The translations under genes were made by a program, and so were the position numbers. Below the pieces are notes generated by a model. It worked only from the letters and a program-made list of their open reading frames with translations. It was not told the origin of the DNA and ran no database searches. Shown in pieces: positions 15,828 through 42,942 of a stretch of 64,000 nucleotides of DNA. Source of the stretch: Candidatus Saccharimonadota bacterium (lineage in GTDB: Bacteria > Patescibacteriota > Saccharimonadia > QS-5-54-17); NCBI GenBank assembly GCA_050486185.1, contig JBJHCT010000001.1, positions 178,866 through 242,865 on the forward strand, given 5' to 3'. Within the stretch, counting starts at the first letter, position 1. Each line of letters begins with the position of its first letter.

Positions 15828-16424
15828 TCATCGTGTCACCACTCTCCATCCAAAAACTCGCGTATTACCAGATGGATTATACAGTTCCAGTTTCATGCTC
15901 GATGCAGCCTTAGCTGCAAACAAAGCACTTAGGCCAAATGAGTCACCATTGGCGGCTGTACCATCAGACACTCGACCCAGCGATGAAGTAGTTCGATTTA
16001 TTGCCACTGTGTCATCAATCGTTAGGCGTACGCCTACACCAAAGCCCTGGATCGATCCACCAATCAGCTCAACTGGCACGGCAATATCAAAGATTGTGTG
16101 ATATGAGCTTGCTGATACTGACTGAGAAGTACCTTCGTGAAAGGTTAGCTCTCCTGCGTCTGCGGCTGTGATTGGTAGTACTACAGACTCCCCAATCTGC
16201 CCCTCAACCCATTGCTTATTAGCAACATCAGTGTCATTGACTGGATCTGCTACTTGCAATCTACCCCATTCATCATAGGCTGCTAGCCTACTACCTCCTG
16301 CTGTTGTTCCATCATGTACTCTAAGAGTTTTATTAGTAGTATCTACTGTAACTTCTCTAGCTGCTCCAGTGAAGCTATCGTTATCTGTATTACTACCACC
16401 TCTTAGTTGTACTTGGTCGGGCAT
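15828..16424 (-). CDS. tail-fibre-like protein, Mtd-N-like conserved N-terminal module + unique C-terminal domain (paralog P1)
   Basis: MPDQVQLRGGSNTDNDSFTGAAREVTVDTTNKTLRVHDGTTAGG...DPVNDTDVANKQWVEG is shared with four other ORFs in the window. Confidence 0.8.
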   Translation of the reverse strand: MPDQVQLRGGSNTDNDSFTGAAREVTVDTTNKTLRVHDGTTAGGSRLAAYDEWGRLQVADPVNDTDVANKQWVEGQIGESVVLPITAADAGELTFHEGTSQSVSASSYHTIFDIAVPVELIGGSIQGFGVGVRLTIDDTVAINRTTSSLGRVSDGTAANGDSFGLSALFAAKAASSMKLELYNPSGNTRVFGWRVVTR

Positions 16425-16493
16425 AATCTACCTTTTTATATATAACCCTTATACTAAACCAAATACTCTGGAGTAGTCAATTTTAAGATCAAA

Positions 16494-16527
16494 TAAAAAA
16501 ACCACTACCCTTTTAAAAGTAGTGGTT
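16494..16527 (-). terminator. rho-independent terminator after rplL
   Basis: Minus strand reads accactac-loop-gtagtggt followed by TTTTTTTATTT. Confidence 0.6.
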
Positions 16528-16561
16528 AATTACCCCCTAACCCTAAAGAAGTTTTTTAGCC

Positions 16562-17020
16562 CTAGGCTAGCTCTACGCTAGCACCAGCTTCTTCTAGCTT
16601 AGCTTTGGCTTCTTCAGCTTCTTCCTTAGGCGCGTTTTCTTTAACTGCCTTTGGAGCGCCATCAACTATAGCTTTACTTTCAGCTAGGCCTAGTCCGGTA
16701 ATTTCACGAACTGCCTTGATGACGTTGATCTTGCTAGCACCAGCGTCAGTTAGAGTGATAGTAAACTCACTCTTTTCTTCTGCTGCGCCACCTTCAGCGT
16801 CTCCACCAGCTGCTGGAGCAGCGGCAACTGCCATAGGAGCAGCTGCTGATACACCGAAGTGCTCTTCTAGAATCTTAACTAGTTCGCTTAGATCTAGAGC
16901 GCTCAAGCTTTCTATATCTTTAACTATACTAGCAAACTTTTTAGGTATCTCTACCTTAGTTTCTTCTTTAGTCTCTTTAACTTCCTTAGTATCTTTAGTT
17001 TCTTTCTTATCTTCTGCCAT
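16562..17020 (-). CDS. rplL: 50S ribosomal protein L7/L12 with K/E/T-rich N-terminal extension
   Basis: C-terminal [28 protein letters not shown]...[17 protein letters not shown]. Confidence 0.95.
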
Positions 17021-17048
17021 TTTAATCTCCTTATTTCTTAGTATTAAA

Positions 17049-17573
17049 TTAACTTTTAGCTTGGGCCGCTTTATCTAGTACTGTAACTAGACCTCGCAAG
17101 TTGCCCGATAGTACACCAACAAAGCCAGATAGTGGCGCGGCGATAGTGCCAACAAGCTGAGCTTGCAACACTTCTTTGGCCGGTAGATCAGCTAGTCGCT
17201 TGATCTCCTCAGCCGATAGTACTGTTCCTTGATCATCTATAGCCATGATCGGCTTTAGACTCTCATGTTTCTTGGCGTGTTCTGAGATAGTTTTAGCTAC
17301 TGCAACTGGATCGTTGTAGCCAAAAGCCATAACTACTGGGCCCTCTAGCTCGGATAGGTCCACATCTTTATGGGTTTCAGATACGGCAATCTTCAACATA
17401 GCGTTTTTAACTACTCTGAAGTTACCGCCTTGTTCCTTGATGGCCTTTCGAAGATTCTGAGAATCTTCTACAGATAGGCCGGTGTAGCTAGATAGAACAC
17501 TTAGACTGCTTTTGCTAAGCTCATCTTTGATATCGGCTACTTGAGCCTCTTTTGCTTGTCTGGATATAGCCAT
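17049..17573 (-). CDS. rplJ: 50S ribosomal protein L10
   Basis: Lies immediately upstream of rplL. Typical L10 N-terminus ([18 protein letters not shown]). Confidence 0.9.
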
Positions 17574-17868
17574 AAACTATATTCTCCCTATATATTTAGT
17601 TGATTTTTTAAGTGAGCATAAAAAAAGTCTTTGGATTATCGACCAAAAACCAAAGACCTATCTTTTATCCTTTTTTAGATAGTTACAAAAATATCTATTA
17701 CTAGACCTTTTTTGGTAACTTTCACCTAGGTAGTCTGATTTATTAAGTTCTTTGTTACAAGAACGGCTACGGTCTTTGGCTCACTAGGGATTAATATACA
17801 CTTTAAATAGGCTATTTGTCAAAAAATCCTTCCTAAAAGTTGGCAACAATTGTATACTTCTTCGAGTT

Positions 17869-18513
17869 ATGAGTATAGATGACCAACAATCAGACAACAC
17901 CTTAAGTAGCGATATCGACGCTAAAATTGCCAAGGATATGACTAAGGTAGACTATGAGCAGAAGATCGCTGAGCTAGAGGCGAAAATAGAAGAGCTAGAG
18001 GGTCGAGTAGTGACCGACTTTCTAACCGGTATCTATAATCGGCGCGGCTTAGAGGCATTGATGAACCGTGAATGGAACAGAATTAAAAGACTAGATAGCC
18101 CTAAAAGCCAAATCTTTTCTATAATCTGTATCGATAAGGACAATTTTAAAAGTATTAACGACAAATACGGCCACCTAAGTGGTGATATAGCCCTAAAGTC
18201 CATCGCCGAGCTATTAGAATCGTCCGTGCGAGAAAGTGATATCGTGGCTAGGTTTGGTGGCGATGAGTTTGTAGTAGTGCTACTTTCAACCGATACTGAA
18301 GAAGCTAAGCGGATAGCCGATGAGCTTGTTGATGTAGTAGCTAAGAACAAGATCACTAGTATTGATGGTAGGGACTTCTACTGCAAGATGTCTGCTGGTG
18401 TAAGCACCTATAAAGACCATCAAGATTGGCGCGAAGTCCTACATGAAGCCGACCAGGCGCTACTACAAGTCAAGGCTAAAGATAAAGGCAGAGCCCTTGC
18501 TTACGAGGTTTAA
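17869..18513 (+). CDS. GGDEF-domain diguanylate cyclase with N-terminal coiled coil
   Basis: RFGGDEF active-site motif with upstream DFLTGIYNRRGL. Confidence 0.85.
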   Translation: MSIDDQQSDNTLSSDIDAKIAKDMTKVDYEQKIAELEAKIEELEGRVVTDFLTGIYNRRGLEALMNREWNRIKRLDSPKSQIFSIICIDKDNFKSINDKYGHLSGDIALKSIAELLESSVRESDIVARFGGDEFVVVLLSTDTEEAKRIADELVDVVAKNKITSIDGRDFYCKMSAGVSTYKDHQDWREVLHEADQALLQVKAKDKGRALAYEV

Positions 18514-18707
18514 ATATCCTCTTGTATTAACTGCTTCCAGGTTTTGTAGTTGACAAGAGCCACTTATATCGAGTAATTTAGTTGGTATGTCAGTGCAACC
18601 AATCAATAGAATCATGTTTAGCAGTTCTCCGCTTAGCGGTCTGGTGCTAATTGTGGGTGATATTAGATAGGTTGAAGCCTCTGGCATAAAAAAGTTAAAG
18701 AAATAAC

Positions 18708-18745
18708 AATCCCGGGACTTCAACCAAGAAGCCTCGGGATTTTTA
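18708..18745 (+). terminator. putative rho-independent terminator
   Basis: aatcccgggacttc / gaagcctcgggatt stem (one G-U pair, one mismatch) followed by TTTTT. Confidence 0.45.
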
Positions 18746-18882
18746 ATTTAAAGTGTTTTGATGAAAGCTTTTATCGATAACGATAATAAAAGTTTTCATG
18801 GAATCGCTTCAAAGATTCCAATATTCTTGAGGGGCAACCTTCAGGATGTACATCAACAAAGCGGGAGAAAGGCAGATGAGGG

Positions 18883-19293
18883 ATGGATGCTATCGCGCAA
18901 CAAGAAGTGACTACTGACCCTTGGAGGTATCCGATGTTCGATCCCAAGTACGACAACAGCAACACTCAGCGTCGCCATATGTTGGCGGTCGGCCGAATTC
19001 CTAGACTGATTGGCGATCTAAAGAAAGGCAAAAGAACTCTCGACGAGAAGTTCGTGCGCCTTCTCTACTCGGAGTATCGGGCCTACTGGCGAAGTCGCCA
19101 TCCTTTCCACATGCGGCTGCAGCACTGTCAGATGAAGGAGACCGGTGCCTTCTATGGCTGGTCTCTTGGCAAAATTTTGGAGTACCTCAGCACTCCAGAT
19201 GACACCACCAAGGAGGGTGCTTGCGAGGCTGTATGCATCCTCAGAAATTCCGTCAAGGCTAATGTGGTTGATGACTTACTGGCTCTTAGCTAG
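18883..19293 (+). CDS. hypothetical protein in a locally GC-elevated segment
   Basis: 136-aa ORF with no recognisable motif. Composition looks richer in G+C than the flanks. Confidence 0.35.
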   Translation: MDAIAQQEVTTDPWRYPMFDPKYDNSNTQRRHMLAVGRIPRLIGDLKKGKRTLDEKFVRLLYSEYRAYWRSRHPFHMRLQHCQMKETGAFYGWSLGKILEYLSTPDDTTKEGACEAVCILRNSVKANVVDDLLALS

Positions 19294-19394
19294 AGCCTCA
19301 GACACCACTACTCCCCGGGATTGAGGCTGCAAAGGATGTACTTATCTAGTGAGTAACCCTTACTAGCTTTGGACATCGTGCCTCTTTCCCGACT

Positions 19395-19453
19395 GGGGCG
19401 GCGAGTCATAGTCATGTGGATGATAGATCCATCCTAGGCTGACTCGCCGCCCC
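19395..19453. repeat. perfect 14-bp GC-rich inverted repeat (hairpin) with 31-nt loop
   Basis: ggggcggcgagtca (19395-19408) and tgactcgccgcccc (19440-19453). The loop contains a nested tggat...atcca pairing. It lies between convergent genes. Confidence 0.7.
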
Positions 19454-19474
19454 TAACCAAACACTTCTCCCGCT

Positions 19475-21172
19475 TTAACTTCTATCTAGTAATTCACTAG
19501 TATTATCATAATTTGGCTTTACTGCTAATCCCTTTTTTCTTTGTGTGTAAGTAGAGTCAGCTAAAGTTTCTGCCATATCGAAAGTGGCATCTCTATAGCC
19601 ATAATCTCCACCTGGACGTATTCGTAAATGAGTTAGGTAGTCCCACTGCATAAGAGGGCCACTCATTAGTAATCTAGACTGATGTCCTAGTGGTAGTACG
19701 TGTTGCATAAAACCATAGTCTTGATCTGGGCCTAAGACAGTTTTTATATCTTCATAAAATCTATAGATATTATCATAAAGATCTACCATGTCTTGATTCC
19801 ACTCATCTTCCACAGACCTAAGGCTACTGGTTCTAGAGATGACATGGCTACGATTGAACCCAGTTCTAATTACGGCATCGTGGTTATCGGTCTCTAGCAT
19901 AGTTGCTAACCTGCCCATGGCTCGGTGCCTATTGAAGTCTCTTTGATAGGCTAGCGCAGTATCTATATCCATAACATGACCGCGTATATCAGCAGCGTTG
20001 CGTAAGATATTATGATGCGTGTGATCATTAAAGATAGTTCTTAGTAGATCGGCCTGCTCAACTTCTGGTAGTTGGTTGACAAATCCTAGCGCTTCATCGA
20101 ACCCTATATTAGGCAAGATAGTCATGATATAGCCAGCAACTACTTCATTTCCTGGACGAATTGCAGCATTAGCTTCAATAAGTTCTACGGATGTTTCTTG
20201 AGGACTTGGAGTAGTTTGCAGTCTAGATAGAGATAACTCTTTAAGACGACTAAACTCCGGTGTTTGATCCAGTGACTCTTTGAGTCTTTCGGTATTTTTA
20301 CTAATAGTATCAGAGCCTTTAGCGTACTTAAGTAGTCCTGCTAAATCGGCCTGTATATCCTCGCTGCCTTCGTAGCGTTTTAGGCTGAGCAGTGTAGTTA
20401 GTTGGTCTGCTAATCTTTGGCCATAGAAATCTTGACGTTGATCAAGCTGAGTAATTAAGCTGATAGCTTCTCTGACATCAAACTGCAAGGACATACTAGT
20501 TCTACCGCCAAACGGTATCCAAGCTCTAGCAGCATCCAAAGCTCTTTTGTCCATAGCCCCCTCTTTAGCATCTGGATGCTCTTTTCTAACAAAGTCCATC
20601 AATCCATCTTTTATAATAGGGAACCATTTAGCGAAACCATCGTGAGCTTGACGTTGCAAAACCTCCCAATCCGTCACTAACTGCTGCCTGCGAGCATCTT
20701 CTAAGCCGCTAATATCTACTAGGCTTTCTAGGGCGGTAACTGTTGGGTTCTTCAGCTCGACATATCTAGTAGAGGTTTCTTGACCTCCTACCAAAACCAA
20801 GTGGTTGAATATCCAATATGCCTCGCTCATAGGCAGGTTATTTAGATGCACCATAAGTGGGCTCATGTTGGCTATCGATTGGTGTCCATATCCAAAAAAC
20901 ATATCGATCTTTTCTGAATGGGTTACGTCTCTTATCTCTGCGTAAATACCTTCATGAGGGTCATCACTGCGAGAAGTTCTAGCGCCAGCCCACGGTATGG
21001 CTGCATGAACATCATATCCATCATTAAACTCTACGAACACAGCTGTAATGTCGGTCTCTGAGCTTTTTACATTAAATAGCCTTACACCGGTTTCTTTCGG
21101 GTCAGATACCGATAGCTCGTATTCTGGCGGTAGTTGTTGTGATTCTGGCTTGGTGGTTGTTTGTTCTGACAT
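19475..21172 (-). CDS. ThyX-like FAD-dependent thymidylate synthase, tandem-domain form
   Basis: Two ThyX-like halves. The first has GQETSTRYV and ARAWIPFGGRTS...; the second has FNRHRAMGR and VLPLGHQSRLLMSG...THLR. Only the second half keeps the RHR motif. Confidence 0.6.
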   Translation of the reverse strand: MSEQTTTKPESQQLPPEYELSVSDPKETGVRLFNVKSSETDITAVFVEFNDGYDVHAAIPWAGARTSRSDDPHEGIYAEIRDVTHSEKIDMFFGYGHQSIANMSPLMVHLNNLPMSEAYWIFNHLVLVGGQETSTRYVELKNPTVTALESLVDISGLEDARRQQLVTDWEVLQRQAHDGFAKWFPIIKDGLMDFVRKEHPDAKEGAMDKRALDAARAWIPFGGRTSMSLQFDVREAISLITQLDQRQDFYGQRLADQLTTLLSLKRYEGSEDIQADLAGLLKYAKGSDTISKNTERLKESLDQTPEFSRLKELSLSRLQTTPSPQETSVELIEANAAIRPGNEVVAGYIMTILPNIGFDEALGFVNQLPEVEQADLLRTIFNDHTHHNILRNAADIRGHVMDIDTALAYQRDFNRHRAMGRLATMLETDNHDAVIRTGFNRSHVISRTSSLRSVEDEWNQDMVDLYDNIYRFYEDIKTVLGPDQDYGFMQHVLPLGHQSRLLMSGPLMQWDYLTHLRIRPGGDYGYRDATFDMAETLADSTYTQRKKGLAVKPNYDNTSELLDRS

Positions 21173-21194
21173 CTCGATACCTCCTTAAAGGGTT

Positions 21195-25499: not shown

Positions 25500-25589
25500 T
25501 CAAATATCCCAGTGACTGTCGAATGGTTCCGGGTTGCCTTGCATCTCGAAAGTTCCCGCGTCGAGGTCACAGACGATAAGCACGGTCAT
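25500..25589 (-). CDS. 29-aa mini-ORF at the end of the high-GC block
   Basis: Hand translation gives MTVLIVCDLDAGTFEMQGNPEPFDSHWDI. The ATG is preceded by TAGGAGGACACC, where TAG is the stop of the upstream gene. Confidence 0.3.
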   Translation of the reverse strand: MTVLIVCDLDAGTFEMQGNPEPFDSHWDI

Positions 25590-25598
25590 GGTGTCCTC

Positions 25599-26459
25599 CT
25601 ACGGCTCGATTGGATAGCGGATGTAGGCGACCCCGCGTCCACCGCGACCCGAAAAGGGACCTGTGTTACCAGCCGCACCGCCGCCACCTGCGCCTGTACC
25701 ATGCGTTCCGGCACCGCCTGTGGGAGACGCATCGCTACCTCCTGCGCCGCCGCCGCCAGCACCACCGGCACCGCCAGCATCACGACCGCCCCCGCCGCCG
25801 CCACCGCCGCGAATGACGCTCGACCCGGTGAAGTCGGATGACTCCCCGGCCCCACCGGCACCACCTGTCGTCCACGTCGGGCCGTTCGCCCCCGCCGCCG
25901 AGGTTCCACCGCCACCGCCGCCCGAGTCGTCAGCCGAGCCGTCGCCACCGTCGTTCCCTTGACCTGATGATCCACTGCCCCCGGTTGAACGAGATGCTCC
26001 ACCGCCTCCTGAACCTCCTGAGCCACCAACCTGCTGCCCCGAACCAAAAGTACCCCCACCACCGCCGCCACCAGTTGCAGTCACACCCGCAAACGTCGTG
26101 TTCGAGCCTGCATTACCTCGCCCACCGCCGGTTACACCGGCACCTTCTGCACCGACCACCACGGGGTAGACGGAAGCCGCGACCGGGACACTGCCCGTGC
26201 GCCGACCACCGGCACCGCCACCGCCACCGCCACGGATACCCGAAGATCCGCCACCAGCGCCGCCTCCAGCGACCAGGTAATACTCGACTTCTTCGTCCGT
26301 ACCCGGATCTAGAACCGTAAAGTTGGCTGACCCCGCCGCCGCGAACGTATGAAGCCTATACTGCCGACCGTCGATGGTGATGGTCGACTCGGTGCCGCCA
26401 GTTGCCGAGACAGAAACCCACACATCAGACGCAATGATCCCGCGACGAAGCAGCCGCAT
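25599..26459 (-). CDS. glycine-rich tail-protein-like protein (high GC)
   Basis: FTVLDPGTDEEVEYYLVAGGGAGGGSSG...GGGGGAGG and long G-rich tracts, as in phage minor-tail or glycine-rich-domain proteins. The ATG at 26459 overlaps the P2 stop (TGATG). The ORF track's alternative start is 26492. Confidence 0.65.
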   Translation of the reverse strand: MRLLRRGIIASDVWVSVSATGGTESTITIDGRQYRLHTFAAAGSANFTVLDPGTDEEVEYYLVAGGGAGGGSSGIRGGGGGGAGGRRTGSVPVAASVYPVVVGAEGAGVTGGGRGNAGSNTTFAGVTATGGGGGGGTFGSGQQVGGSGGSGGGGASRSTGGSGSSGQGNDGGDGSADDSGGGGGGTSAAGANGPTWTTGGAGGAGESSDFTGSSVIRGGGGGGGGRDAGGAGGAGGGGAGGSDASPTGGAGTHGTGAGGGGAAGNTGPFSGRGGRGVAYIRYPIEP

Positions 26460-27007
26460 CAGGTGACCGCCTGTGCGCCGGTCATAACCCACTCGTTCGT
26501 AGCGTGCTTCGTGAGCACCGCCGTGCCGTACCGGTCGAGCGTCCCCGCTAGACGAACCGTAACCCCAGAGCCACCCACGACGGTCACGCCACCTGCACCG
26601 GCCGCATAGACCTCGATCACACTGCCCACCACAAACGCGACCGACGAGTTAGGCGGGACAGTGACAGTCACCGCGGCGGTATTGGTGAACCGCTTGACCG
26701 TCCCCGCGTCGGCCAGGGCGAGTGTGTAGGTCGTGCCCGATTCGTCAGAGAGCGCGACAGACGCGACAGAGTCGCCAATCTGTCCATCTACGTAGCCCTT
26801 GTTGGCGATATCAGCATCATCGACAGGATCGGCTACTTGGGCGCGACCCCACTCGTCATAGACTAGGAGCTTATGCCCACCAGCTGTTGTTCCATCATGT
26901 ACTCTAAGAGTCTTATTAGTAGTATCTACTGTAACTTCTCTATTAACGCCAGTAAAAGCATCGTTCTCTGCTTCGGTTCCACCTCTTAGTTGTACTTGGT
27001 CTGGCAT
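26459..27007 (-). CDS. tail-fibre-like protein, Mtd-N-like N-terminal module (low GC) + high-GC C-terminal domain (paralog P2)
   Basis: MPDQVQLRGGTEAENDAFTGVNREVTVDTTNKTLRVHDGTTAGG. Base composition switches inside the ORF near 26860-26890. Confidence 0.8.
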   Translation of the reverse strand: MPDQVQLRGGTEAENDAFTGVNREVTVDTTNKTLRVHDGTTAGGHKLLVYDEWGRAQVADPVDDADIANKGYVDGQIGDSVASVALSDESGTTYTLALADAGTVKRFTNTAAVTVTVPPNSSVAFVVGSVIEVYAAGAGGVTVVGGSGVTVRLAGTLDRYGTAVLTKHATNEWVMTGAQAVT

Positions 27008-27083
27008 AGCGTTAGTTACTCTTCCTAAATCCTTATGGATTATTGTTGTCTCTATACTAAGTTAGTGGGGTGAGTTTAGTCAA
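27008..27083 (-). promoter_or_regulatory. conserved promoter/5' UTR of the P-family (copy at P2)
   Basis: Minus strand reads TTGACT-N18-TAGTAT, then aatccataaggatt hairpin, then AGGAAGAG RBS. A near-identical 75-nt block lies upstream of P5. Confidence 0.4.
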
Positions 27084-32121: not shown

Positions 32122-32197
32122 TGGCAGGGGTACCAGGATTCGAACCCGGACTACGACTTTTGGAGAGTCGTGTGCTAGCCGTTGACACTATACCCCT
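32122..32197 (-). tRNA. tRNA-Trp (anticodon CCA)
   Basis: Hand-folded: acceptor AGGGGTA/TACCCCT, anticodon arm CGACT-CTCCAAA-AGTCG, T-arm CCGGG-TTCGAAT-CCTGG, encoded CCA. Confidence 0.85.
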
Positions 32198-32903
32198 TCA
32201 ACTCACTAAATTCAGTATAAATCATTTCTAGTAACTTTCCGAGTCTCCTATCTAGGTATCTTATACTAATGCACCCTGGATAGTTGATACGCTTCGTTTT
32301 ACCGGCATGCTTCTTTAAGTAAGGTTTATGGAACTGATTTATTGGTATTTTTGTTACTTGTGACCAATATTCTGTCTGTGTAAGCGCATCATGATAGCTA
32401 TGTAAATGTATTAATGCTCTAAACTTAGATTCATCTAAATCGAAACACTCCCTTAAATAGCCCATGAATATTCTTACCATATTTGGATCAGAGTTAGCGA
32501 ACTGTATTCCTGCCGATATATCCTTACCCCCTTCACACCAAAATAGCATTGAGCATACTAGTTTTTTGTGAGATATATCTAGATTTATGTTTTTAGCAAT
32601 ATTTCTGGCAGATAAAGTAATTTCTTGATCTCTAGCAAGCTTTCTTTCCTTATTTATAGTTGCTAATTTATTGATATTATCTCTTTGTGTATTCCGGATT
32701 TTATGATTAGAAAAGTCTATACCATTTGAACTAAGCTTTATATCTTTAGTCCATGCATAGGCTGTAGACTTGGCAATATCAAGTTCCTGTGCGATTTCTG
32801 AATAGAAAAAACCTTGTTTTCTTAGCGTTACTGCTTCTTTTTTTATTTTCGAACTATAGCTCACTAATAACATAACCTCTTTATATAAGAAATTATACAG
32901 CAC
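32175..32903 (-). CDS. HTH + LAGLIDADG-like (homing-endonuclease-like) protein; 3' end overlaps tRNA-Trp
   Basis: N-terminal HTH (YSEIAQELDIAKSTAYAWTKD). LFWCEGGKD and NSDPNMVRIFMGYL resemble degenerate LAGLIDADG-type domains. The last 23 nt lie inside the tRNA. Confidence 0.4.
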   Translation of the reverse strand: MLYNFLYKEVMLLVSYSSKIKKEAVTLRKQGFFYSEIAQELDIAKSTAYAWTKDIKLSSNGIDFSNHKIRNTQRDNINKLATINKERKLARDQEITLSARNIAKNINLDISHKKLVCSMLFWCEGGKDISAGIQFANSDPNMVRIFMGYLRECFDLDESKFRALIHLHSYHDALTQTEYWSQVTKIPINQFHKPYLKKHAGKTKRINYPGCISIRYLDRRLGKLLEMIYTEFSELKGYSVNG

Positions 32904-33269: not shown

Positions 33270-33932
33270 TTAGGTCGTGATTCCTAAATCAACTACCATC
33301 TGCCAGACTGGGCGTACAGGATCCCCTACAGTGAAGGTTCCAACAGCAGGATTCCCGCGTGTCTTGAGCGTCATAGGTGAACCTGTCCCTACAAAAAGAT
33401 GTTCACAATAGGCAGAAACATTGCCCGATGCATTTGCGGCGTTATAGATTGCGACTTGCTGTTGGCCGTTCGATCCGTTAGTGATAGTCATATTGCCGCG
33501 ACCAGCAGTTGATCCGGTTAGGACTACCGCGAAAGCCCGATAGGCATATAGGCGGCCAGTCTCGGTATTAAACGTGAACTCAGAGCCAACTAAATCGACA
33601 GAGGCTCCTTCTGAAACAATCTGTTGTGTAGTACGAATATTAAACGCAAATCCTCCTGTACCCCCAGATGTTGCAGATACTACACCGTCGGGCTTGGGAG
33701 TAATAACCCCATCCACATAGCTCTTGTTAGCTACATCAGTGTCATTAACTGGATCTGCTGTTTGCAGCCTACCCCATTGATCATAAGCTGCTAGTTTACT
33801 TCCACCTGCTGTTACTCCATCATGTACTCTAAGAGTCTTATTAGTAGTATCTACTGTAACTTCACGTTGTGCTCCTGTGAAGTTATCATTATCTGTGCTG
33901 CTTCCACCTCTTAGTTGTACTTGGTCGGGCAT
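33270..33932 (-). CDS. tail-fibre-like protein, Mtd-N-like N-terminal module + unique C-terminal domain (paralog P3)
   Basis: The family start MPDQVQLRGGSSTDNDNFTGAQREVTVDTTNKTLRVHDGVTAGG lies at 33932. The 23-aa upstream extension in the ORF track is AT-rich and absent from the other paralogs. Confidence 0.8.
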   Translation of the reverse strand: MPDQVQLRGGSSTDNDNFTGAQREVTVDTTNKTLRVHDGVTAGGSKLAAYDQWGRLQTADPVNDTDVANKSYVDGVITPKPDGVVSATSGGTGGFAFNIRTTQQIVSEGASVDLVGSEFTFNTETGRLYAYRAFAVVLTGSTAGRGNMTITNGSNGQQQVAIYNAANASGNVSAYCEHLFVGTGSPMTLKTRGNPAVGTFTVGDPVRPVWQMVVDLGITT

Positions 33933-34068
33933 AGTGTGTTTACTACCTTTTATAGAATTATATATCATAAGCATAATACTAAATTTATTACTGTTAGACA
34001 ATCTAAAATAAAATCTATCAAACTACTTCTATGGAGTTTGATAGTAAGTTGGTTATAATATTGTCTGT

Positions 34069-34143
34069 GCCCTGATAGCTCAGTGGTAGAGCGCTTCCAT
34101 GGTAAGGAAGAGGTCGCGAGTTCAATCCTCGCTCAGGGCTCCA
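34069..34143 (+). tRNA. tRNA-Thr (anticodon GGT)
   Basis: Acceptor GCCCTGA/TCAGGGC, anticodon arm CTTCC-ATGGTAA-GGAAG, T-loop TTCAATC, encoded CCA. Confidence 0.85.
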
Positions 34144-34217
34144 TATTAAAATAAATAGTTTTTGCTATAATCAGAAGCTGTTAGTATTCGTTTCTTTCCT
34201 GATGATACAATTATTAC

Positions 34218-34628
34218 ATGTCCCTATGTAAGAATTGCAGTACAGGATTAAACAGATTATCTAGTGTTTATTGTTCTAATAAATGCCAGAAAAATTACGA
34301 ATATGCTACGTACATTAAAAAGTGGAAACAAGGTAAAGTTACTGGTAGCAGAGGGGTTGATGCTAAGAATATTTCTAGGCATATTGTTAGATACCTAATC
34401 AGCAAGTATGAAGGTAGATGTGTAGAATGCGGCTGGAACAAGCTTCATCCAGTTACAGGTAACGTTTTACTAGAAGTAGATCATATAGATGGTGACTCGG
34501 ACAATAATCAGGAAGAGAATTTGCAGTTATTGTGTCCAAATTGCCATTCACTTACTAGTACATACAAAAATCTTAATAATGGTATGGGCAGAGAATGGAG
34601 AAGGTCTAAGTATATAAAATCTTCTTAG
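34218..34628 (+). CDS. HNH endonuclease
   Basis: N-terminal Cys-rich region and VDHIDGDSDNNQEENLQLLCPNCHS (H-N-H motif). Confidence 0.8.
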   Translation: MSLCKNCSTGLNRLSSVYCSNKCQKNYEYATYIKKWKQGKVTGSRGVDAKNISRHIVRYLISKYEGRCVECGWNKLHPVTGNVLLEVDHIDGDSDNNQEENLQLLCPNCHSLTSTYKNLNNGMGREWRRSKYIKSS

Positions 34629-34636
34629 TGTTTTTT

Positions 34637-34712
34637 GCCACCTTAGCTCAGTTGGTAGAGCAACGCTCTTGTAAAGCGTAGGTCGTCGGTTCGAGCCCGA
34701 CAGGTGGCTCCA
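34637..34712 (+). tRNA. tRNA-Thr (anticodon TGT)
   Basis: Acceptor GCCACCT/AGGTGGC, anticodon arm ACGCT-CTTGTAA-AGCGT, T-loop TTCGAGC, encoded CCA. Confidence 0.85.
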
Positions 34713-34728
34713 TAAATAACATACATAT

Positions 34729-34815
34729 GCCAGGGTAGCGAAGCGGCCAAACGCATCTGACTGTAAATCAGACGGCTTCATGCCTTCGGGGGTTCGAATC
34801 CCTCCCCTGGCACCA
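34729..34815 (+). tRNA. tRNA-Tyr (anticodon GTA), long variable arm
   Basis: Acceptor GCCAGGG/CCCTGGC, anticodon arm TCTGA-CTGTAAA-TCAGA, long variable arm, T-loop TTCGAAT, encoded CCA. Confidence 0.85.
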
Positions 34816-34821
34816 CATAAT

Positions 34822-34851
34822 TTGACTGTTGTGCCCTAACTACCCTATTAT
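34822..34851 (+). promoter_or_regulatory. putative sigma70-type promoter of P4
   Basis: TTGACT (34822-34827) - 18 nt - TATTAT (34846-34851). Same architecture as the other paralogs. It starts 7 nt after tRNA-Tyr. Confidence 0.35.
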
Positions 34852-34906
34852 CTAAGAATAACCAGTATTTATACTTTTTTTATATAACCAAAGGTAGATA
34901 ATAATC

Positions 34907-35587
34907 ATGCCCGACCAAGTACAACTAAGAGGTGGTACAGAAGCAGAGAATAATAACTTCACAGGAGCAGCCAGAGAAGTTACAGTAGATACTACTAATA
35001 AGACTCTTAGAGTACATGATGGAGAAACAGCAGGAGGAAGTAAACTAGCAGCTTATGATCAATGGGGTAGGCTGCAAACAGCAGATCCAGTTAATGACAC
35101 TGATGTAGCTAATAAGCAGTGGGTTGAAGGGCATGTTAGTGGTGCTGCTACTCGTCGCGCACTTGTGATTCGCGATGATGTTCAAACAATCCCTAATGCC
35201 ACCACTACAGCAATGATATTCCAGACAGAGGTTTATGACGACGATGGCATGTTTGATATCGGATCACCAACCATGCTTGTTGTGCCATCCGGTGCGTCGA
35301 AAGTACGTGTGTCCGCTAGCGTGGTATGGGGAAGTAATGCAGACGGTCTGCGACAAGCGTTTATTGAACGCGACACTGGTGCAGGATTTACTGCGAGCTA
35401 TAACGGAGTAGCCCGGTTCGCAATGGACCCCGGGACTTCCAATCAGGCTTACTGGACAATGGCGACTGCCTGGATTGCATGTGATCCAGGTGATAAGTTT
35501 CAATTAGCTGTGCATCATACACGAGGAACCACTCTGCAAATGCAAGGCAGTGGTCTAACATGGATGATGATGGAGATATTAACATAA
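34907..35587 (+). CDS. tail-fibre-like protein, Mtd-N-like N-terminal module + unique C-terminal domain (paralog P4)
   Basis: MPDQVQLRGGTEAENNNFTGAAREVTVDTTNKTLRVHDGETAGG. The C-terminal part has a C1q/TNF-like beta-sandwich-type pattern (weak impression). Confidence 0.8.
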   Translation: MPDQVQLRGGTEAENNNFTGAAREVTVDTTNKTLRVHDGETAGGSKLAAYDQWGRLQTADPVNDTDVANKQWVEGHVSGAATRRALVIRDDVQTIPNATTTAMIFQTEVYDDDGMFDIGSPTMLVVPSGASKVRVSASVVWGSNADGLRQAFIERDTGAGFTASYNGVARFAMDPGTSNQAYWTMATAWIACDPGDKFQLAVHHTRGTTLQMQGSGLTWMMMEILT

Positions 35588-37084: not shown

Positions 37085-37138
37085 CTATTATATAGCTAAA
37101 AGAGGTAGCAGCCAAAACGGGCTACATTTCTTAGATAC

Positions 37139-37822: not shown

Positions 37823-37864
37823 CAGCTAGTATAGCAGTTGAAACCTAAGGGCTTTAAGTAGGTT

Positions 37865-38708: not shown

Positions 38709-39238
38709 TATTTATCCTCTTTCTTTTTGGCAGCAGAAGCCTTCTTAGCAGCAGGTTTCTTGGTTGTCGTTTTAGTTGCCGTCTTAGCGGTTGATTTAGC
38801 AGCGGTAGTCTTTTTAGTAGTGTCGGCTGTCTTTGTTGTAGATTTAGCAGTAGTAGCAGGCTTAGTAGCTGGTTTCTTGCTGTCTTCTTTAACAAAGCTA
38901 ATTGTAGCCATCTCGGTATTATCACCTCTGCGCCAACCGGCCGACTCAATCCTTAGATATCCGCCAGGTCTAGTCTTAAACCTAGGTCCTAAATCAGAAA
39001 ACAACTTATCTAGTGACTCTTTGGTGCTGATTTTACTCAAAACCAATCTGCGGTTGTGTTGGTTATCAACCTTAGCTTTAGTTATCAGCTTCTCAACGTA
39101 AGGTCTTAGAGCCTTAGCTTTAGGCTTAGTGGTCTTAATACTCTCATGAGTTATTAGAGACTCAGTTAAAGTCTTTAATAGGGCTCGGCGCTGATCGCGC
39201 TTTCTGGATAGTTTATGTCTTTGCGCTGGCAGTGACAT
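38708..39238 (-). CDS. rplQ: 50S ribosomal protein L17 with about 60-aa K/T/A-rich C-terminal tail
   Basis: HRRLVLSK and GGYLRI L17 core, followed by a low-complexity tail. Confidence 0.9.
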   Translation of the reverse strand: MSLPAQRHKLSRKRDQRRALLKTLTESLITHESIKTTKPKAKALRPYVEKLITKAKVDNQHNRRLVLSKISTKESLDKLFSDLGPRFKTRPGGYLRIESAGWRRGDNTEMATISFVKEDSKKPATKPATTAKSTTKTADTTKKTTAAKSTAKTATKTTTKKPAAKKASAAKKKEDK

Positions 39239-40146
39239 TATTTTAGCTCCAGTTCCTTTAGCTTACTTATAACTTCATCTAGGGCCTTAGCGCCGAAGCC
39301 CTTTAGGCCTTTAAGGTCAGAATCATTCATGGCAGCTAGTTGCTTCAGTGTGACTACACCGTTTTTCTCTAATGCATTGAAAGTGCGTTGTGAAAAGTCT
39401 AGATCAGCTACGCTGATGTTTAGATCTTCTGGCTCTTCTTCTGGCTCTTCTACTTCGGCTACAGCATTGCCACCGGCTATGACGTTGAATTGGTTAACTA
39501 GGATAGTAGAGGCTTGTTCTAAGGTGTCTCTAGGATCGATAGTACCATCAGTTTCTATACTGATAATTAGCTTGTCTAGGTCGGTAACTTGTCCGACACG
39601 AGTGTTCTCTACCTTGTATCTAACCTTTTTGATAGGTGAGAATAGGGCATCAAGTCCGATCATGCCTACACCAAAGTTTCCAGCCTGCTCATCAACTGTC
39701 TGATAACCGCGGCCTTTCTCTACCTGTAAGCTCATCTCTAGTTTAGATTTGTCGTTATCTAAAGTAGCAATGATTTGATCAGGGTTGACTACTTCAACCT
39801 CAGAACTACCTTCTAAATCAGCAGCCGTTACAGGGCCTTTGCCCTTTTTGCTGATTTTAAGAGTTTGTGGTTCATCGCTGTAGACTTTGAATCTAATCTT
39901 CTTTAGGTTCAAGCTGATGATCACTACATCTTCTTTAACACCATTTAGAGTGGTGAACTCATGGGTTGCTCCATCAACACTAAAGGCAGTAGCTGCTGCA
40001 CCGCTTAGTGAGGAAAGTAGCACTCGACGCAGTGAGTTGCCGATAGTAACACCGAAACCCCTGTGTAAAGGCTCGATAGTGTACTCACCGACAAAATCGC
40101 TTTCGTCTATAATCTTAACTTCTGGCAAATGAATATTGTATTGCAT
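39238..40146 (-). CDS. rpoA: DNA-directed RNA polymerase subunit alpha
   Basis: PLHRGFGVTIGNSLRRVLLSS N-terminal domain and C-terminal domain with RTFNALEKNGV. Confidence 0.95.
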   Translation of the reverse strand: MQYNIHLPEVKIIDESDFVGEYTIEPLHRGFGVTIGNSLRRVLLSSLSGAAATAFSVDGATHEFTTLNGVKEDVVIISLNLKKIRFKVYSDEPQTLKISKKGKGPVTAADLEGSSEVEVVNPDQIIATLDNDKSKLEMSLQVEKGRGYQTVDEQAGNFGVGMIGLDALFSPIKKVRYKVENTRVGQVTDLDKLIISIETDGTIDPRDTLEQASTILVNQFNVIAGGNAVAEVEEPEEEPEDLNISVADLDFSQRTFNALEKNGVVTLKQLAAMNDSDLKGLKGFGAKALDEVISKLKELELK

Positions 40147-40168
40147 ATATTTCTCCTTCTTTTCTTGC

Positions 40169-40774
40169 TTATCTTGAGTAAAACTCTACTATTAATTGTT
40201 CATTGATCTCAGGCTCTGCCTCATCACGATTAGGTAGACCTGTTACTTTAGCGCTCATCTTACTTTTATTAAAAGAAAGCCAACTTAATTCTGGAGATCC
40301 TTCAATAGTAAGTGACTGGAAGTAAGTGTTTTTCGCACTTTTCGGTCTAATCGTAATCTCATCACCTGGCCTGACTCTAATAGAAGGTATATCTACGCGG
40401 CGTCCATTAAGCATAATGTGGCCATGAGTAACTAGCTGACGAGCTGATTGACGAGAAGTAGCTAGTTGCAGCCTATAAACTACATTATCTAGACGTCTTT
40501 CTAGGTATTGCAATATCAATTCACCGGTTACGCCTTCGCCTTTTTCGGCCTCTTTAACTAATTTACGGAACTGCTTTTCAAGTAGTCCATAGATTCTTTT
40601 GACCTTCTGCTTTTCACGTAACTGCGTAGCATACTGGGTAGGCTTTGATCTTCTAGCACCGGCATTTTCTCCCGGTAGGGACTTTCGCTTGGCCATAATC
40701 TTGTGAGCTTTAGGATGCAAAGCTACACCTTCTCTACGACTTCTTTTAGCAATCGGCATTAAATCTCTAGCCAT
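40169..40774 (-). CDS. rpsD: 30S ribosomal protein S4
   Basis: YATQLREKQKVKRIYG and S4 domain (RLDNVVYRL...ARQLVTHGHI). Confidence 0.95.
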   Translation of the reverse strand: MARDLMPIAKRSRREGVALHPKAHKIMAKRKSLPGENAGARRSKPTQYATQLREKQKVKRIYGLLEKQFRKLVKEAEKGEGVTGELILQYLERRLDNVVYRLQLATSRQSARQLVTHGHIMLNGRRVDIPSIRVRPGDEITIRPKSAKNTYFQSLTIEGSPELSWLSFNKSKMSAKVTGLPNRDEAEPEINEQLIVEFYSR

Positions 40775-40777
40775 ATC

Positions 40778-41173
40778 TTAAACCCTTCTAGCCTTTCTAG
40801 GCCTACAGCCGTTGTGTGGCACACCTGTAACGTCTTTGATACTAGTTACATTGATATCAGTATTCATCAGCGCTCTAATGGCTGCTTCTCGGCCCTGGCC
40901 AATACCTTTAACAAACACCTGAACCTGCTTCATACCGAAAGGCTTAACTTTCTCAGCAGCATTCTCACTAGCTAGCTGGGCGGCATAGGCAGTGCCCTTA
41001 CGAGATCCTTTAAAACCACTAGCACCAGCTGAGGAAGAAGCTAGTGTATTACCCTTGTTATCGGTAAAAGTAACTATGGTGTTATTAAAACTAGCGAAAA
41101 CATGCACCTGGCCGGTTGGGACAGATTTCTTCTGCTTTGCTTTAGTAGTAGTCTTTTTTGTAGCTTGAGCCAT
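40778..41173 (-). CDS. rpsK: 30S ribosomal protein S11
   Basis: [15 protein letters not shown]...[16 protein letters not shown]. Confidence 0.95.
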
Positions 41174-41205
41174 TAAATATTACCTCTTTTATACCTTTCT
41201 TGATC

Positions 41206-41592
41206 TTAAGTTGGCGTTGGAGCCTTATTTTTCGCACCACCAACTGTCATTCTCTTGCCTCGTTTAGTTCTAGCGTTGGTCTTGGTTCTTTGTCCTCGTA
41301 CCGGTAGTCCTGCTTTGTGTCTCATACCTCTGTATGAGTTGATTTCTCGAAGACGAGAAATACTAACTCTAATACGTTGAGCAAGATCTCCCTCAACTTC
41401 GTAATCTTTATCGATAATTTCACGGATCTTACTTAGCTCTGTTTCTGATAAATCTTTGATTCTGACATTCTCATCTACTTTAGCTTTAGCTAGTATCTTT
41501 TGAGAGTTTGCTCTACCAATGCCGTAAACGTATGTCAGCGCAATAACTGCTCTTTTATCATCTGGAATGTTAACTCCTGCTATTCTAGCCAT
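41206..41592 (-). CDS. rpsM: 30S ribosomal protein S13
   Basis: [14 protein letters not shown]...[23 protein letters not shown]. Confidence 0.95.
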
Positions 41593-41595
41593 TTT

Positions 41596-41709
41596 TTATC
41601 CTTGCCTCTGCTTATGTTTAGGGTTTACGCATATAACACGCACCACGCCCTCACGGCGAATAACTTTGCATCTGGCGCAAATCTTCTTGACGCTAGCTTG
41701 AACTTTCAT
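41596..41709 (-). CDS. rpmJ: 50S ribosomal protein L36
   Basis: Not in the ORF track (37 aa). Hand translation gives [37 protein letters not shown]. Confidence 0.9.
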
Positions 41710-41727
41710 ATTAAGCGTTTAAACCCC

Positions 41728-41949
41728 TTATTTATGTCTATAGGTGATTCTGCCCTTCTCTAGATCGTAAGGTGTCATTTCAACTGTCACCTTGTCCCCG
41801 GGCACAATCTTGATGTAGTGCATTCTCATTTTTCCAGCAATAATGCCTGTTATCTCGTGTCCGTTTTCTAAACGCACACGAAACATTGCGTTTGGCAACG
41901 TTTCTAGAATTGTTCCTTCAAATTCTACAACCTGCTTTTTGCTGGCCAT
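41728..41949 (-). CDS. infA: translation initiation factor IF-1
   Basis: [25 protein letters not shown]...[16 protein letters not shown]. Confidence 0.95.
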
Positions 41950-41980
41950 AAGCTACAAGACTCCATTATAAGTAGTGGAC

Positions 41981-41998
41981 AGGGGTTTGTAAACCCCT
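41981..41998. repeat. 18-nt palindromic motif aggggtttgtaaacccct (copy 1)
   Basis: An identical 18-mer recurs at 59277-59294. It can form a GC-clamped hairpin. It lies 32 nt upstream of the infA ATG, before a tataat and ggag. Confidence 0.7.
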
Positions 41999-42206
41999 AT
42001 TTCACAACTTTTTTTATTTGTATTAATTAGCACTATATCACTAGTGGTAGGGATTTGCAAGGATATTAGTTTTGGATAAGCAAAGAATATGTGCTTAATT
42101 AATATCTGGAAATCTTGGATTTGAATAGTGATTACTCTAACGCAACACTCCTGGATCTCTCGCTAGAAGGAGGGTAATACCGTTATTGTTGGCATTTAAA
42201 CCACCA

Positions 42207-42866
42207 CTACATCTTCTCTGCAACAACAGTAATTACCCGATTCCTAAAAGTACTAGTGGCCGAAGATGTCGCATACTTTGCGGTAAACGTAGTAGTACCG
42301 GGGTTCAGCCCGCTAAGCAAAAACGTTCTGGAAGCCGTACCATGTCCTGACCCGGCCCAGGAATTCCCTATAGCACTACGGCTTTGCGCTGTCAGCCCTC
42401 CCCAAGTATCCCCAGCGGCGTATGTATTTGTTCCAGTCGCTGCAAGGTTCATTGACGTCACAACACCAGCACCCGAACCCCACATAAAGGCACTCAGCGA
42501 TACCAGGACTTTACCAGATGCTGGTACGTCGATTTCAATAGAAGGACCAACAGTGGCTAAATCAGTAAAAGATGTGCTAGTGGTTGACTCTTGTGCTGCT
42601 GTTTCTGAACCCTCGAAGCTTATTCCAGACTCTTCAACCACCCCATCTACATAACTCTTGTTAGCTACATCAGTATTATTGACTGGATCTTCTACTTGCA
42701 GCCTACCCCATTCATCATAAGCTGCTAGTCTACTTCCTCCTGCTGTTTCTCCATCATGTACTCTAAGAGTCTTATTAGTAGTATCTACTGTAACTTCACG
42801 GCTTACTCCAGTGAAGCTATCGTTATCGTTTGCTGTACCACCTCTTAGTTGGACTTGGTCGGGCAT
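42207..42866 (-). CDS. tail-fibre-like protein, Mtd-N-like N-terminal module + unique C-terminal domain (paralog P5)
   Basis: MPDQVQLRGGTANDNDSFTGVSREVTVDTTNKTLRVHDGETAGG. Located between secY and infA. Confidence 0.8.
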   Translation of the reverse strand: MPDQVQLRGGTANDNDSFTGVSREVTVDTTNKTLRVHDGETAGGSRLAAYDEWGRLQVEDPVNNTDVANKSYVDGVVEESGISFEGSETAAQESTTSTSFTDLATVGPSIEIDVPASGKVLVSLSAFMWGSGAGVVTSMNLAATGTNTYAAGDTWGGLTAQSRSAIGNSWAGSGHGTASRTFLLSGLNPGTTTFTAKYATSSATSTFRNRVITVVAEKM

Positions 42867-42912
42867 GGTGTTAGTTACTCTTTCTAAATCCTTATGGATT
42901 ACTGTTGTCTTT

Positions 42913-42942
42913 ATATTAGGTTAGTAGAGTAGGTTTAGTCAA
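42913..42942 (-). promoter_or_regulatory. putative sigma70-type promoter of P5
   Basis: Minus strand reads TTGACT (42942-42937) - 18 nt - TAATAT (42918-42913). It begins 6 nt after the secY stop. Confidence 0.35.

Follow-up and report, generated by a model that had tools for sequence, protein, structure and literature searches.

What is a set of phage tail-like genes doing among the core genes of a tiny and probably parasitic saccharibacterium? The question is raised by a 64,000-nucleotide (nt) stretch of DNA (the window, to which all positions refer) within a 264,553-bp contig whose closest named relatives are metagenome-assembled genomes (MAGs) of Candidatus Saccharimonadales, members of the Candidate Phyla Radiation (CPR). 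Five open reading frames (ORFs) in the window, P1-P5, begin with nearly the same sequence and end in unrelated ones, and a first-pass annotation had read them as domesticated receptor-binding proteins (RBPs) with a constant anchor and exchangeable tips. The present analysis demonstrates that P1-P5 form part of a lineage-specific multigene family with at least nine members on the contig and that the shared 5' unit is mosaic between copies; recombination at this unit, or immediately downstream of it, replaces the tips. With regard to function, the best explanation overall, held with moderate confidence, is a repertoire of host-recognition binding proteins that carry phage-type heads on a common anchor.

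A constant anchor with unrelated heads

All five ORFs are intact, and the boundaries and strands first assigned to them were correct (Table 1); for P3, an upstream TTG provides an alternative start that would give an ORF of 33270-34001. A motif scan of the whole window in six frames found exactly five copies, so that the original count holds for the window but not for the family: nine Mtd_N proteins are encoded on the contig, all by intact ORFs, and P0006, P0015, P0022 and P0025 lie outside the window. In a protein alignment of P1-P5, 50 columns within the first 75 amino acids (aa) are invariant, the shared N-module comprises 76-77 aa, and nothing can be aligned beyond about aa 77, much as had been described. 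A repeat search of the whole window recovered this family alone, with arms of 226-232 nt that are 75-88% identical, and no second copy of any tip. Because all repeat arms end at nt 226-232 of the coding sequence (CDS), the break is sharply clustered at one module boundary.

The N-module had been likened to Mtd of Bordetella phage BPP-1, and homology searches show that it is a true Mtd_N domain. The Pfam model Mtd_N (PF18454, 37 positions, gathering score 26.3 bits) matched all of P1-P5 with 40.4-50.4 bits, aa 5-41 corresponding to model positions 1-37 of 37. In phmmer comparisons of two copies with solved Mtd (PDB 1yu0), aa 3-52 of P4 aligned with Mtd residues 3-52 (E = 1.5e-11 or 1.4e-11), and the P5 N-module aligned with the same Mtd residues (E = 4.2e-9). 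In addition, phrog_9648 ('tail protein') matched the N-terminus of all five, and AlphaFold2 (AF2) monomer models of the N-module have a predicted local distance difference test score (pLDDT) of approximately 72-90; searches of NCBIfam gave no matches. Each family protein is a short phage-type RBP in three parts, namely Mtd_N (aa 1-47), a neck (aa 48-76) with the clade-specific sequence ...YDxWGRLQVADPVNDTDVANKxYVDG, and a C-terminal head of 105-150 aa taken from the stock of phage receptor-binding tips.

The two constant parts differ in their distribution: aa 1-47 alone are common to viruses, whereas the neck is specific to this bacterial clade. As a phage module, Mtd_N is widespread and extremely conserved: domains that are up to 77-79% identical head proteins of approximately 100-1,400 aa on IMG/VR contigs, and the cultured phages that carry it include cyanophages, vibriophages, BPP-1-like phages and pelagiphages, among others. 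A Syntrophomonadaceae phage (PV036453.1, a gut siphophage of a monoderm host) encodes a 175-aa 'tail protein' composed of Mtd_N and a neck, downstream of its tape-measure and distal tail genes and followed by a further ORF, which implies that short proteins of such architecture are genuine virion components. A scan for the N-module found three loci on genome contigs and six on metagenome contigs, and the clade-specific neck was present in none of the latter six; the clade is rarely sampled. Separately, a small-genome bacterium (L085, GCA_964313715.1, 887-kb contig) has a solo 155-aa Mtd_N gene (10001-10468) among cellular genes, directly behind those for Pom and SLT_2 (lytic transglycosylase), so that such solo genes may be more common among reduced genomes.

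The tips and the N-module were compared by tblastn with 50,697 phage records, together with the products of two fibre-like genes of the window that lack Mtd_N, the Phage Tail Collar gene and the Gly_rich_2 ORF. All 85 records matched by the P5 tip were Mycobacterium phages (minor tail or hypothetical proteins, 36-44% identity), and all six matched by the P2 tip were Gordonia phages (50-54% identity over 80-94% of the tip). Staphylococcus phages accounted for 239 of the 249 records matched by the P4 tip; a few other phages made up the rest. The N-module matched 37 records, none of which (0/37) was an actinophage. The Collar protein matched 1,603 records from many different hosts, which shows that the exclusive matches of P5 and P2 do not stem from the database. 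The P1 tip, the P3 tip and the Gly_rich_2 ORF had zero matches in the 50,697 records.

Profile and structure comparisons add to this picture. The P2 tip matched phrog_8780 (minor tail protein) at 1.6e-16, the P5 tip is homologous to the C-termini of actinobacteriophage minor tail proteins (phrog_7565), and the P4 tip matched phrog_13989/11660 as well as PDB entry 9euf_B (E = 1.5e-6); the P1 tip had no phage or PHROG match. The AF2 model of P5 has a mean pLDDT of 83.5, mostly above 90 in the tip, which is predicted to adopt a TNF/C1q-like jelly-roll fold. Among the top 50 matches of this model in BFVD, those to named cultured phages were mostly to actinophages, and the sole taxonomically named sequence homologues of the P5 tip are from Pseudonocardia and Streptomyces. 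The heads of P2, P4 and P5 are, on these matches, homologous to heads of known phage tail proteins, and the family proteins are thus chimeras of an anchor undetected in actinophages and heads common to phages of mycolate or monoderm bacteria.

Several tips also occur in other company. P0256 carries a tip 79% identical to that of P5 behind a non-Mtd_N N-terminus, and other members of the P5 tip family follow collagen repeats or actinophage-style N-termini. Similarly, the P3 tip has 16 relatives among 1.84 billion representatives, all with other N-modules (LTAANMN-type or Collar-type). No Pfam match to CLec, FGE-sulfatase or Lcl_C was found in P1-P5.

Recombination at the shared 5' unit

A 48-nt core (GAAGTTACAGTAGATACTACTAATAARACTCTTAGAGTACATGATGGA), which had been aligned by hand, indeed occurs five times in the window with 0 mismatches (0.00 expected). 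The codons of invariant residues are identical across the five copies at 15/16 positions in the core and at 13/33 in the rest of the module (Fisher p = 4.6e-4). Even P2, the most divergent copy, shows synonymous identity to P3, P4 and P5 at 16/16 sites in the core versus about 50% outside it (p = 6e-5 to 4e-4). A GENECONV-style permutation test (global p < 2e-4) detected two tracts, one shared by P3 and P4 (nt 132-204, p < 2e-4) and the other by P2 and P4 (nt 34-42, p = 4e-4). P3 and P4 had been credited with about 150 shared nt and only two mismatches; the mismatch number is exact, but the length is 137 nt (CDS 70-206). Their inverted-repeat arms (Table 1) enclose, in order, a tRNA-Thr gene, an HNH endonuclease gene (34218-34628, +), a second tRNA-Thr gene and a tRNA-Tyr gene.

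A comparison between genomes helps to interpret this pattern. In a related genome, the same 16 core codons differ between its copies at 7-9 synonymous sites, and therefore the core has been homogenised within the present genome and is not a universally constrained nucleotide element. Over 228 nt, identity is 190-202 among P1, P3, P4 and P5 and 202 for the pair of copies in another genome (L001, GCA_040904145.1), whereas N-modules from different genomes share 167-174 positions. The recombination or gene conversion suspected in the first-pass annotation is thus borne out by the P3-P4 tract, the synonymous identity of the P2 core and the cross-genome control. At the same time, purifying selection is indicated by the invariance of 50 of the approximately 76 residues of the N-module, given that synonymous sites outside the core do vary.

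Other explanations of the shared unit were considered and rejected. The core does not behave as a functional RNA, DNA or recombinase site, its synonymous sites being unconserved in the related genome, its fold unremarkable (z = +0.65) and an Rfam match absent; Rfam models found tRNAs alone in the window. A shufflon or site-specific inversion was set aside because all copies are complete genes, each with its own start codon and promoter-like site, and because the related genome does not preserve the core at the nucleotide level; no site-specific recombinase or invertase was found among the scanned window ORFs. With regard to transposon-like mobility, neither flanking direct repeats of at least 9 nt nor target-site duplications or shared 3' ends were detected around the copies. 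The lack of target-site duplications and shared 3' ends suggests that insertion was homology-anchored and not transpositional. Crossovers between direct copies would remove essential genes, since the family members are scattered through essential operons.

The P2 locus gives the clearest view of how a tip may arrive. A high-GC island (Table 1; 60-nt sliding profile) starts immediately 3' of the P2 invariant core, at CDS nt 117, and ends just past the Gly_rich_2 ORF. Housekeeping genes have a GC content of 0.431 +/- 0.021 and a GC content at third codon positions (GC3) of 0.374 +/- 0.037, compared with which GC3 in P2 rises from 0.26 (nt 1-69) through 0.47 (nt 118-231) to 0.77 in the tip. In P2, therefore, the promoter, the leader and the first 117 nt are local, and the foreign high-GC segment joined to them brought the rest of an Mtd_N module, a variant neck, the tip and a partner ORF. 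The variant neck (HKLLVYDxWGRAQV) is also found in P0012. A like pattern is seen in the copies of Lejia Saccharimonadales MAGs, with GC3 of 0.17-0.26 in the N-part and 0.37-0.61 in tips and partners. Across the window and Lejia loci, N-module GC3 is 0.17-0.33, markedly below the housekeeping value; codon usage peculiar to these modules, or an anchor derived from lower-GC DNA, might account for the difference. Inside the foreign segment of P2, the Gly_rich_2 ORF is followed by what may be a mini-ORF of 29 aa (MTVLIVCDLDAGTFEMQGNPEPFDSHWDI, ~25510-25598). The P2 locus is a clean natural case of a reduced genome that has received a homology-anchored graft of foreign DNA. The proposal that the tips are exchangeable is accordingly upheld by this graft, by the common end of the repeat arms, by P0256 and by the recurrence of the same tip families at other loci.

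Genomic setting and related genomes

The gene family is wedged among housekeeping genes, which among the scanned window ORFs include rplJ/rplL, dnaX, dnaB, recR, cysS, nusG, tmk, rpmG, secY, infA, rpmJ, rpsM and rpoA. The ribosomal-protein block (37.8-52.4 kb and 57.6-64 kb) was identified solely by synteny with a relative, L100. The copies lie beside core loci, as had been noticed; their neighbours are rplJ/rplL, dnaX, nusG, tRNAs, rpmG, a gene for a tetratricopeptide-repeat (TPR) protein, secY, infA and rpsM. None of the approximately 47 scanned ORFs encodes a capsid, portal, terminase, tube, baseplate, integrase or lysis protein; neither was a tail-morphogenesis module found around the family genes among the scanned window ORFs.

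The same fixed paralogues in relatives, the situation in which an exchange of cassettes would not be needed, were not seen in L100, the one syntenic relative compared (RpoA 69% identical). Its gene order matches through the S10 operon, secY, infA, rpsM and rpoA, and then the TPR gene, rpmG and mgtE. The secY-infA gap of L100 is 100 nt with the P5 site empty, and its TPR-rpmG interval contains an HTH/LAGLIDADG-like ORF running into tRNA-like sequence alone, P3 and P4 being missing. On this comparison P3, P4 and P5 look like lineage-specific insertions. Elsewhere, copies in Lejia MAGs lie inside the dcw cluster, beside a sortase gene and near pilin genes of type IV secretion systems (T4SS), and tips of the P5 and P2 types occur there at loci unrelated to those of the window. 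Further Mtd_N tips in related genomes comprise Gly_rich_2, which is fused directly to Mtd_N, Lcl_C (P0021), a right-handed beta-helix and others.

The family is probably larger than assemblies suggest. In the closest relative, L099 (RpoA 83%), the contig ends at 4564, exactly at the expected P4 position, and a related contig starts inside the N-module core (L003/L098). Since contig ends fall at or beside the N-module, the repeat probably fragments short-read assemblies, and the family is likely under-counted in CPR MAGs.

The family genes appear to be transcribed separately from one another. Exactly four instances of TTGACT-N18-TAnnAT are present in the 64 kb (0.26 expected), one ahead of each of P1, P2, P4 and P5 at a distance of 27-56 nt, and purine-rich AAGG/AGGA motifs precede the ATG of all five genes. 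P2 and P5 have in common a 73-nt block, 63/73 identical, which runs from the -35 element almost to the ATG, while the upstream regions of P1, P3 and P4 have the ribosome-binding-site motif alone in common. The P2/P5 leader was rejected as a structured RNA, a 5-bp hairpin alone being formed, no different from shuffled sequences.

The account of the family given earlier was incomplete in that the window holds two more fibre-like solo genes without Mtd_N. The Collar gene represents the same phenomenon in a different family: its product, with an N-terminus (MARLPIPGEDIGTWGDILNEFL...) that resembles another fibre N-module, has its best phage matches among Pseudomonas phi3-like tail fibres (46% identity). 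The ATG of the Gly_rich_2 ORF overlaps with the stop codon of P2, an arrangement suggestive of translational coupling. In Lejia MAGs, Mtd_N genes of 153 and 163 aa are each followed by an ORF overlapping by 4 nt; these ORFs of 409 aa (L095 10459-11688) and 425 aa (L098 491-1768) had no Pfam or PHROG match, that of L095 (409 aa) has a GC3 of 0.58 within a 41% GC genome, and both may encode partner proteins of short Mtd_N fibres.

Table 1. Positions of the family genes, their shared elements and associated features in the window
Feature	Position	Strand	Description
P1 gene	15828-16424	-	198 aa; Mtd_N + neck (CDS nt 1-231 = 16194-16424) + 121-aa unique tip; Mtd_N 45.8 bits
P2 gene	26459-27007	-	182 aa; Mtd_N + variant neck + 105-aa tip, Gordonia-phage minor-tail type
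P3 gene	33270-33932	-	220 aa; Mtd_N + neck + 143-aa tip, rare short-fibre tip family
P4 gene	34907-35587	+	226 aa; Mtd_N + neck + 149-aa tip akin to Staphylococcus-phage tail/baseplate proteins
P5 gene	42207-42866	-	219 aa; Mtd_N + neck + 142-aa tip, predicted TNF/C1q-like jelly-roll, mycobacteriophage minor-tail type; between secY and infA
48-nt core, P1	16308-16355	-	AAA at the R position
48-nt core, P2	26891-26938	-
48-nt core, P3	33816-33863	-
48-nt core, P4	34976-35023	+
48-nt core, P5	42750-42797	-
P3/P4 inverted-repeat pair	33701-35138		232-nt arms, 88% complementary, 77-nt exact run
High-GC island	25550-26890	-	~1.35 kb; GC 0.57-0.83
P1 promoter-like site	16451-16480	-	TTGACT-N18-TAGTAT
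P2 promoter-like site	27054-27083	-	TTGACT-N18-TAGTAT
P3 promoter-like site	33973-34001		TTGTCT-17-TATTAT
P4 promoter-like site	34822-34851	+	TTGACT-N18-TATTAT
P5 promoter-like site	42913-42942	-	TTGACT-N18-TAATAT; starts 7 nt past secY stop codon
rplL intrinsic terminator	16500-16527		12-bp stem; separates rplL from P1 promoter-like site
Phage Tail Collar gene	6333-7148	-	271 aa; no Mtd_N; directly downstream of cysS; PF07484 1e-26; phrog_523 1.1e-49
Gly_rich_2 ORF	25599-26459	-	no Mtd_N; PF21722 4e-17; phrog_2295 1.9e-39; GC 0.675

Mobile DNA is concentrated in the tRNA/rpmG region. Besides the HNH endonuclease gene between the two tRNA-Thr genes, an HTH + LAGLIDADG-like ORF (32175-32903, -) overlaps tRNA-Trp and has a homologue at the syntenic L100 site, where a GIY-YIG endonuclease gene is found as well (L100 15012-15668 and 16032-16415). 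Elsewhere in the window, a hairpin-forming motif, CAGGGGTTTGTAAACCCCT(G), is repeated at 41980-42016, just upstream of infA, and at 59276-59312, upstream of a gene block at about 59.3 kb, and may be an operon-leader or terminator element. A 565-aa ORF (19475-21172, -) matches ThyX (Thy1) over aa 63-242 only and hence represents a long fusion or extension, and a stand-alone GGDEF diguanylate cyclase gene (17869-18513, +) stands beside the rplJL operon on the opposite strand.

What the family may do

The MAT family of Bdellovibrio is the closest functional precedent. It comprises 21 phage-fibre-like trimers located at the surface, with an invariant N-domain and swappable tips, and one MAT binds prey glycans (PMC10769870). 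By analogy, both cases would involve a bacterium living on bacteria, with a dispersed multi-copy fibre-like repertoire in which an invariant N-domain, presumed in Bdellovibrio to dock to the cell's own surface, is combined with diverse C-terminal tips. Unlike the present proteins, which are 180-230 aa long, carry Mtd_N without an export signal and come from a monoderm CPR bacterium, the MATs have a signal peptide, a different beta-rich N-domain of approximately 130 aa and long fibres (1,031-1,151-residue constructs).

Phage proteins supply the parts in other combinations. Mtd itself is a pyramid-shaped, receptor-binding trimer at the ends of tail fibres (PMC2408619), and its N-terminal ~50 residues are homologous to the family anchor (61% identity over aa 1-51, tblastn). 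However, Mtd is encoded in a phage tail module and has a C-type-lectin domain diversified by a diversity-generating retroelement (DGR), whereas P1-P5 are solo genes among cellular core genes with unrelated tips, TNF-like in the case of P5; no template repeat was found in the window repeat search, and no reverse transcriptase among the Pfam-scanned window ORFs. The short Mtd_N phage tail proteins (PV036453.1 and tandem 120/176-aa genes in IMG/VR) likewise combine Mtd_N, a short neck and a small head, often with an ORF downstream, but belong to tail modules, whereas the present copies have no virion genes nearby and a promoter-like site each. Actinobacteriophage minor tail proteins (phrog_7565, phrog_8780), in turn, share homologous C-termini with the P5 and P2 heads and differ in their N-terminal and shaft parts; Mtd_N was found in no actinophage record.

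In genetic terms, the family resembles the Mycoplasma vlp/vsa and Neisseria pilE/pilS systems, in which a constant promoter or 5' unit is joined to variable 3' parts and the copies recombine with one another. In contrast to these systems, every copy here is complete and has a promoter-like site, with no silent cassettes or repeat-tract switches. The MAT concept and the Mtd_N domain are thus known already, and what distinguishes the present family is its Mtd_N anchor, the very short proteins, the CPR epibiont, homology-anchored tip grafting and tips related to those of host phages.

If the family is such a recognition repertoire, the constant Mtd_N and neck would trimerise and dock all members onto one putative common partner, and the variable heads would bind different surface ligands. 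Recognition of, or attachment to, the bacteria on which the epibiont lives would be the most likely role, and the source of new tips would probably be foreign (phage) DNA, captured through recombination that uses the conserved module as its anchor. Such a role is suggested by the combination of several heads nearest to the tips of Mycobacterium, Gordonia and Staphylococcus phages, an anchor undetected among actinophage records and the lifestyle of cultured Saccharibacteria, which grow on Actinobacteria (PMC10633639). Ca. Mycosynbacter amalyticus, for instance, is a saccharibacterium that parasitises Gordonia amarae and needs its mycolic-acid layer (PMC11880426). The proteins may, as was previously proposed, be surface adhesins that serve an epibiotic lifestyle, and the family is presumably domesticated.

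Several points weigh against this interpretation, and export is the main one. Phage RBPs are assembled in the cytoplasm, and no signal peptide, transmembrane segment or LPXTG motif was found in any of P1-P5 or in the Collar protein, which leaves the surface route unexplained and makes assembly on a phage-like particle a live alternative. The P1 and P3 tips are without informative relatives, the AF2 model of the P3 tip being unusable (pLDDT below 50, shallow alignment), the promoter-like sites are consensus matches only, and L100 is the sole syntenic relative compared. In addition, phages infecting the monoderm Saccharimonadales themselves would bring like tips, so that the host-range reading is not unique. 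Signal peptides are present on the Bdellovibrio MATs (PMC10769870) and on known saccharibacterial pilins. A non-Sec export route, such as the patescibacterial T4SS, is possible; it was noticed post hoc that two copies in related genomes adjoin T4SS genes. At these loci, six tandem T4SS_pilin paralogues together with TrbL and PrgI (L098 3232-5785) lie approximately 2 kb from an Mtd_N gene, and another Mtd_N gene is directly downstream of a VirD4/TrwB-like coupling ATPase gene (L001 17459-20113).

Among the alternatives, the one that survives best is that P1-P5 are RBPs of a phage-derived particle encoded elsewhere, such as a prophage, a tailocin or a domesticated element resembling a gene transfer agent (GTA), onto which they dock via Mtd_N, the loci being accessory host-range cassettes. 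Dispersed fibre and spike loci occur in RcGTA, Mtd_N is a virion-attachment domain in every characterised case, and the absence of a signal peptide or anchor from all copies is as expected of virion proteins. Overlapping, apparently coupled ORFs are found downstream of P2, P0019 and P0020, and an ORF also stands close behind the phage gene of L101. The out-of-window paralogues P0022 (364 aa) and P0025 (367 aa), the only ones with Mtd-like C-termini, point in the same direction: both end in a conserved scaffold (...RGGxW...AGVFALxL...PS....GxGFRVAWYA) and differ from each other at interspersed positions, with weak similarity to FGE-sulfatase (P0025) and CLec, as in true phage Mtd. This pattern resembles a DGR variable region on a C-type-lectin scaffold and suggests DGR activity, present or recent, in the genome or in a prophage within it. 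On the other side, neither the scanned window ORFs nor the approximately 100 kb flanking Mtd_N genes in relatives yielded a gene for a capsid, portal, terminase, tube, tape-measure or baseplate protein, each gene has its own housekeeping-type promoter and belongs to no late operon, and the copies sit tightly within ribosomal and cell-division operons in a reduced genome of the ~1-Mb class. A particle seems rather unlikely overall but is a serious alternative.

The readings as junk DNA and as decoy defence are less likely. Selfish or neutral debris, that is, RBP fragments captured by a small, naturally competent and recombination-prone genome and spread by duplication without function for the organism, would fit the mobile-DNA-rich region (the HNH gene among tRNAs, the HTH/LAGLIDADG-like ORF and the L100 GIY-YIG gene), the unameliorated foreign segment in P2 and the natural competence of Saccharibacteria (PMC10633639). 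It is nevertheless improbable, as not one of the five ORFs, or of the nine on the contig, is disrupted, the invariance of the N-module is maintained against varying synonymous sites, promoter-like sites and purine-rich motifs precede all five genes, the family is kept in several related reduced genomes, and transposon-like ends and target-site duplications were not found. Anti-phage decoys, which would co-assemble onto progeny virions of Mtd_N-type phages and give them useless or mis-targeted tips, would account for the apparently cytoplasmic proteins, the seemingly constitutive promoters and an anchor that is strictly conserved while the tips take no part in this conservation. This idea is very improbable: no PADLOC defence model was matched by P1-P5, the Collar protein or the Gly_rich_2 ORF, no sampled virus carries a close N-module together with the neck (viral matches stop at aa 47 and reach 77-79% at best), and the upkeep and renewal of diverse, intact, well-folded heads would be left unexplained. 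Finally, simple old paralogues without exchange, to which the roughly equal distance of P2 from all copies, including those of the other genome (170-176/228 nt), might point, are already contradicted and scarcely credible in view of the empty L100 sites, the significant mosaics, the core synonymous identity confined to this genome, the compositional junction in P2 and the presence of the same tip behind other N-modules.

How ultrasmall Patescibacteria pick their hosts is a largely open question, the factors implicated so far being type IV pili, a T4SS, unnamed adhesins and a new pilus (PMC10633639, PMC12206443, 10.64898/2026.03.03.709456). A literature search found no paper on Mtd_N or tail-fibre-like families in Saccharibacteria, although one 2026 preprint on CPR makes brief mention of a 'tail fibre-like protein' that is encoded near the pam pilus operon across the group. 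If the family is a recombining recognition repertoire on a constant anchor, it would represent a second, modular recognition layer that parallels the MAT fibres of Bdellovibrio. A more far-reaching and quite tentative possibility, which we would rather doubt than favour, is that an epibiotic CPR bacterium has adopted the phage RBP architecture and renews its heads from the phages of its hosts (mycolate Actinobacteria and possibly Firmicutes) via recombination in the Mtd_N core. If this were true, the surface would be reached by a non-Sec route, and the tip set of a Saccharimonadales genome would predict the host range of that bacterium. For the present uncultured lineage, the heads resembling those of Mycobacterium and Gordonia phages predict mycolate Actinobacteria as hosts.

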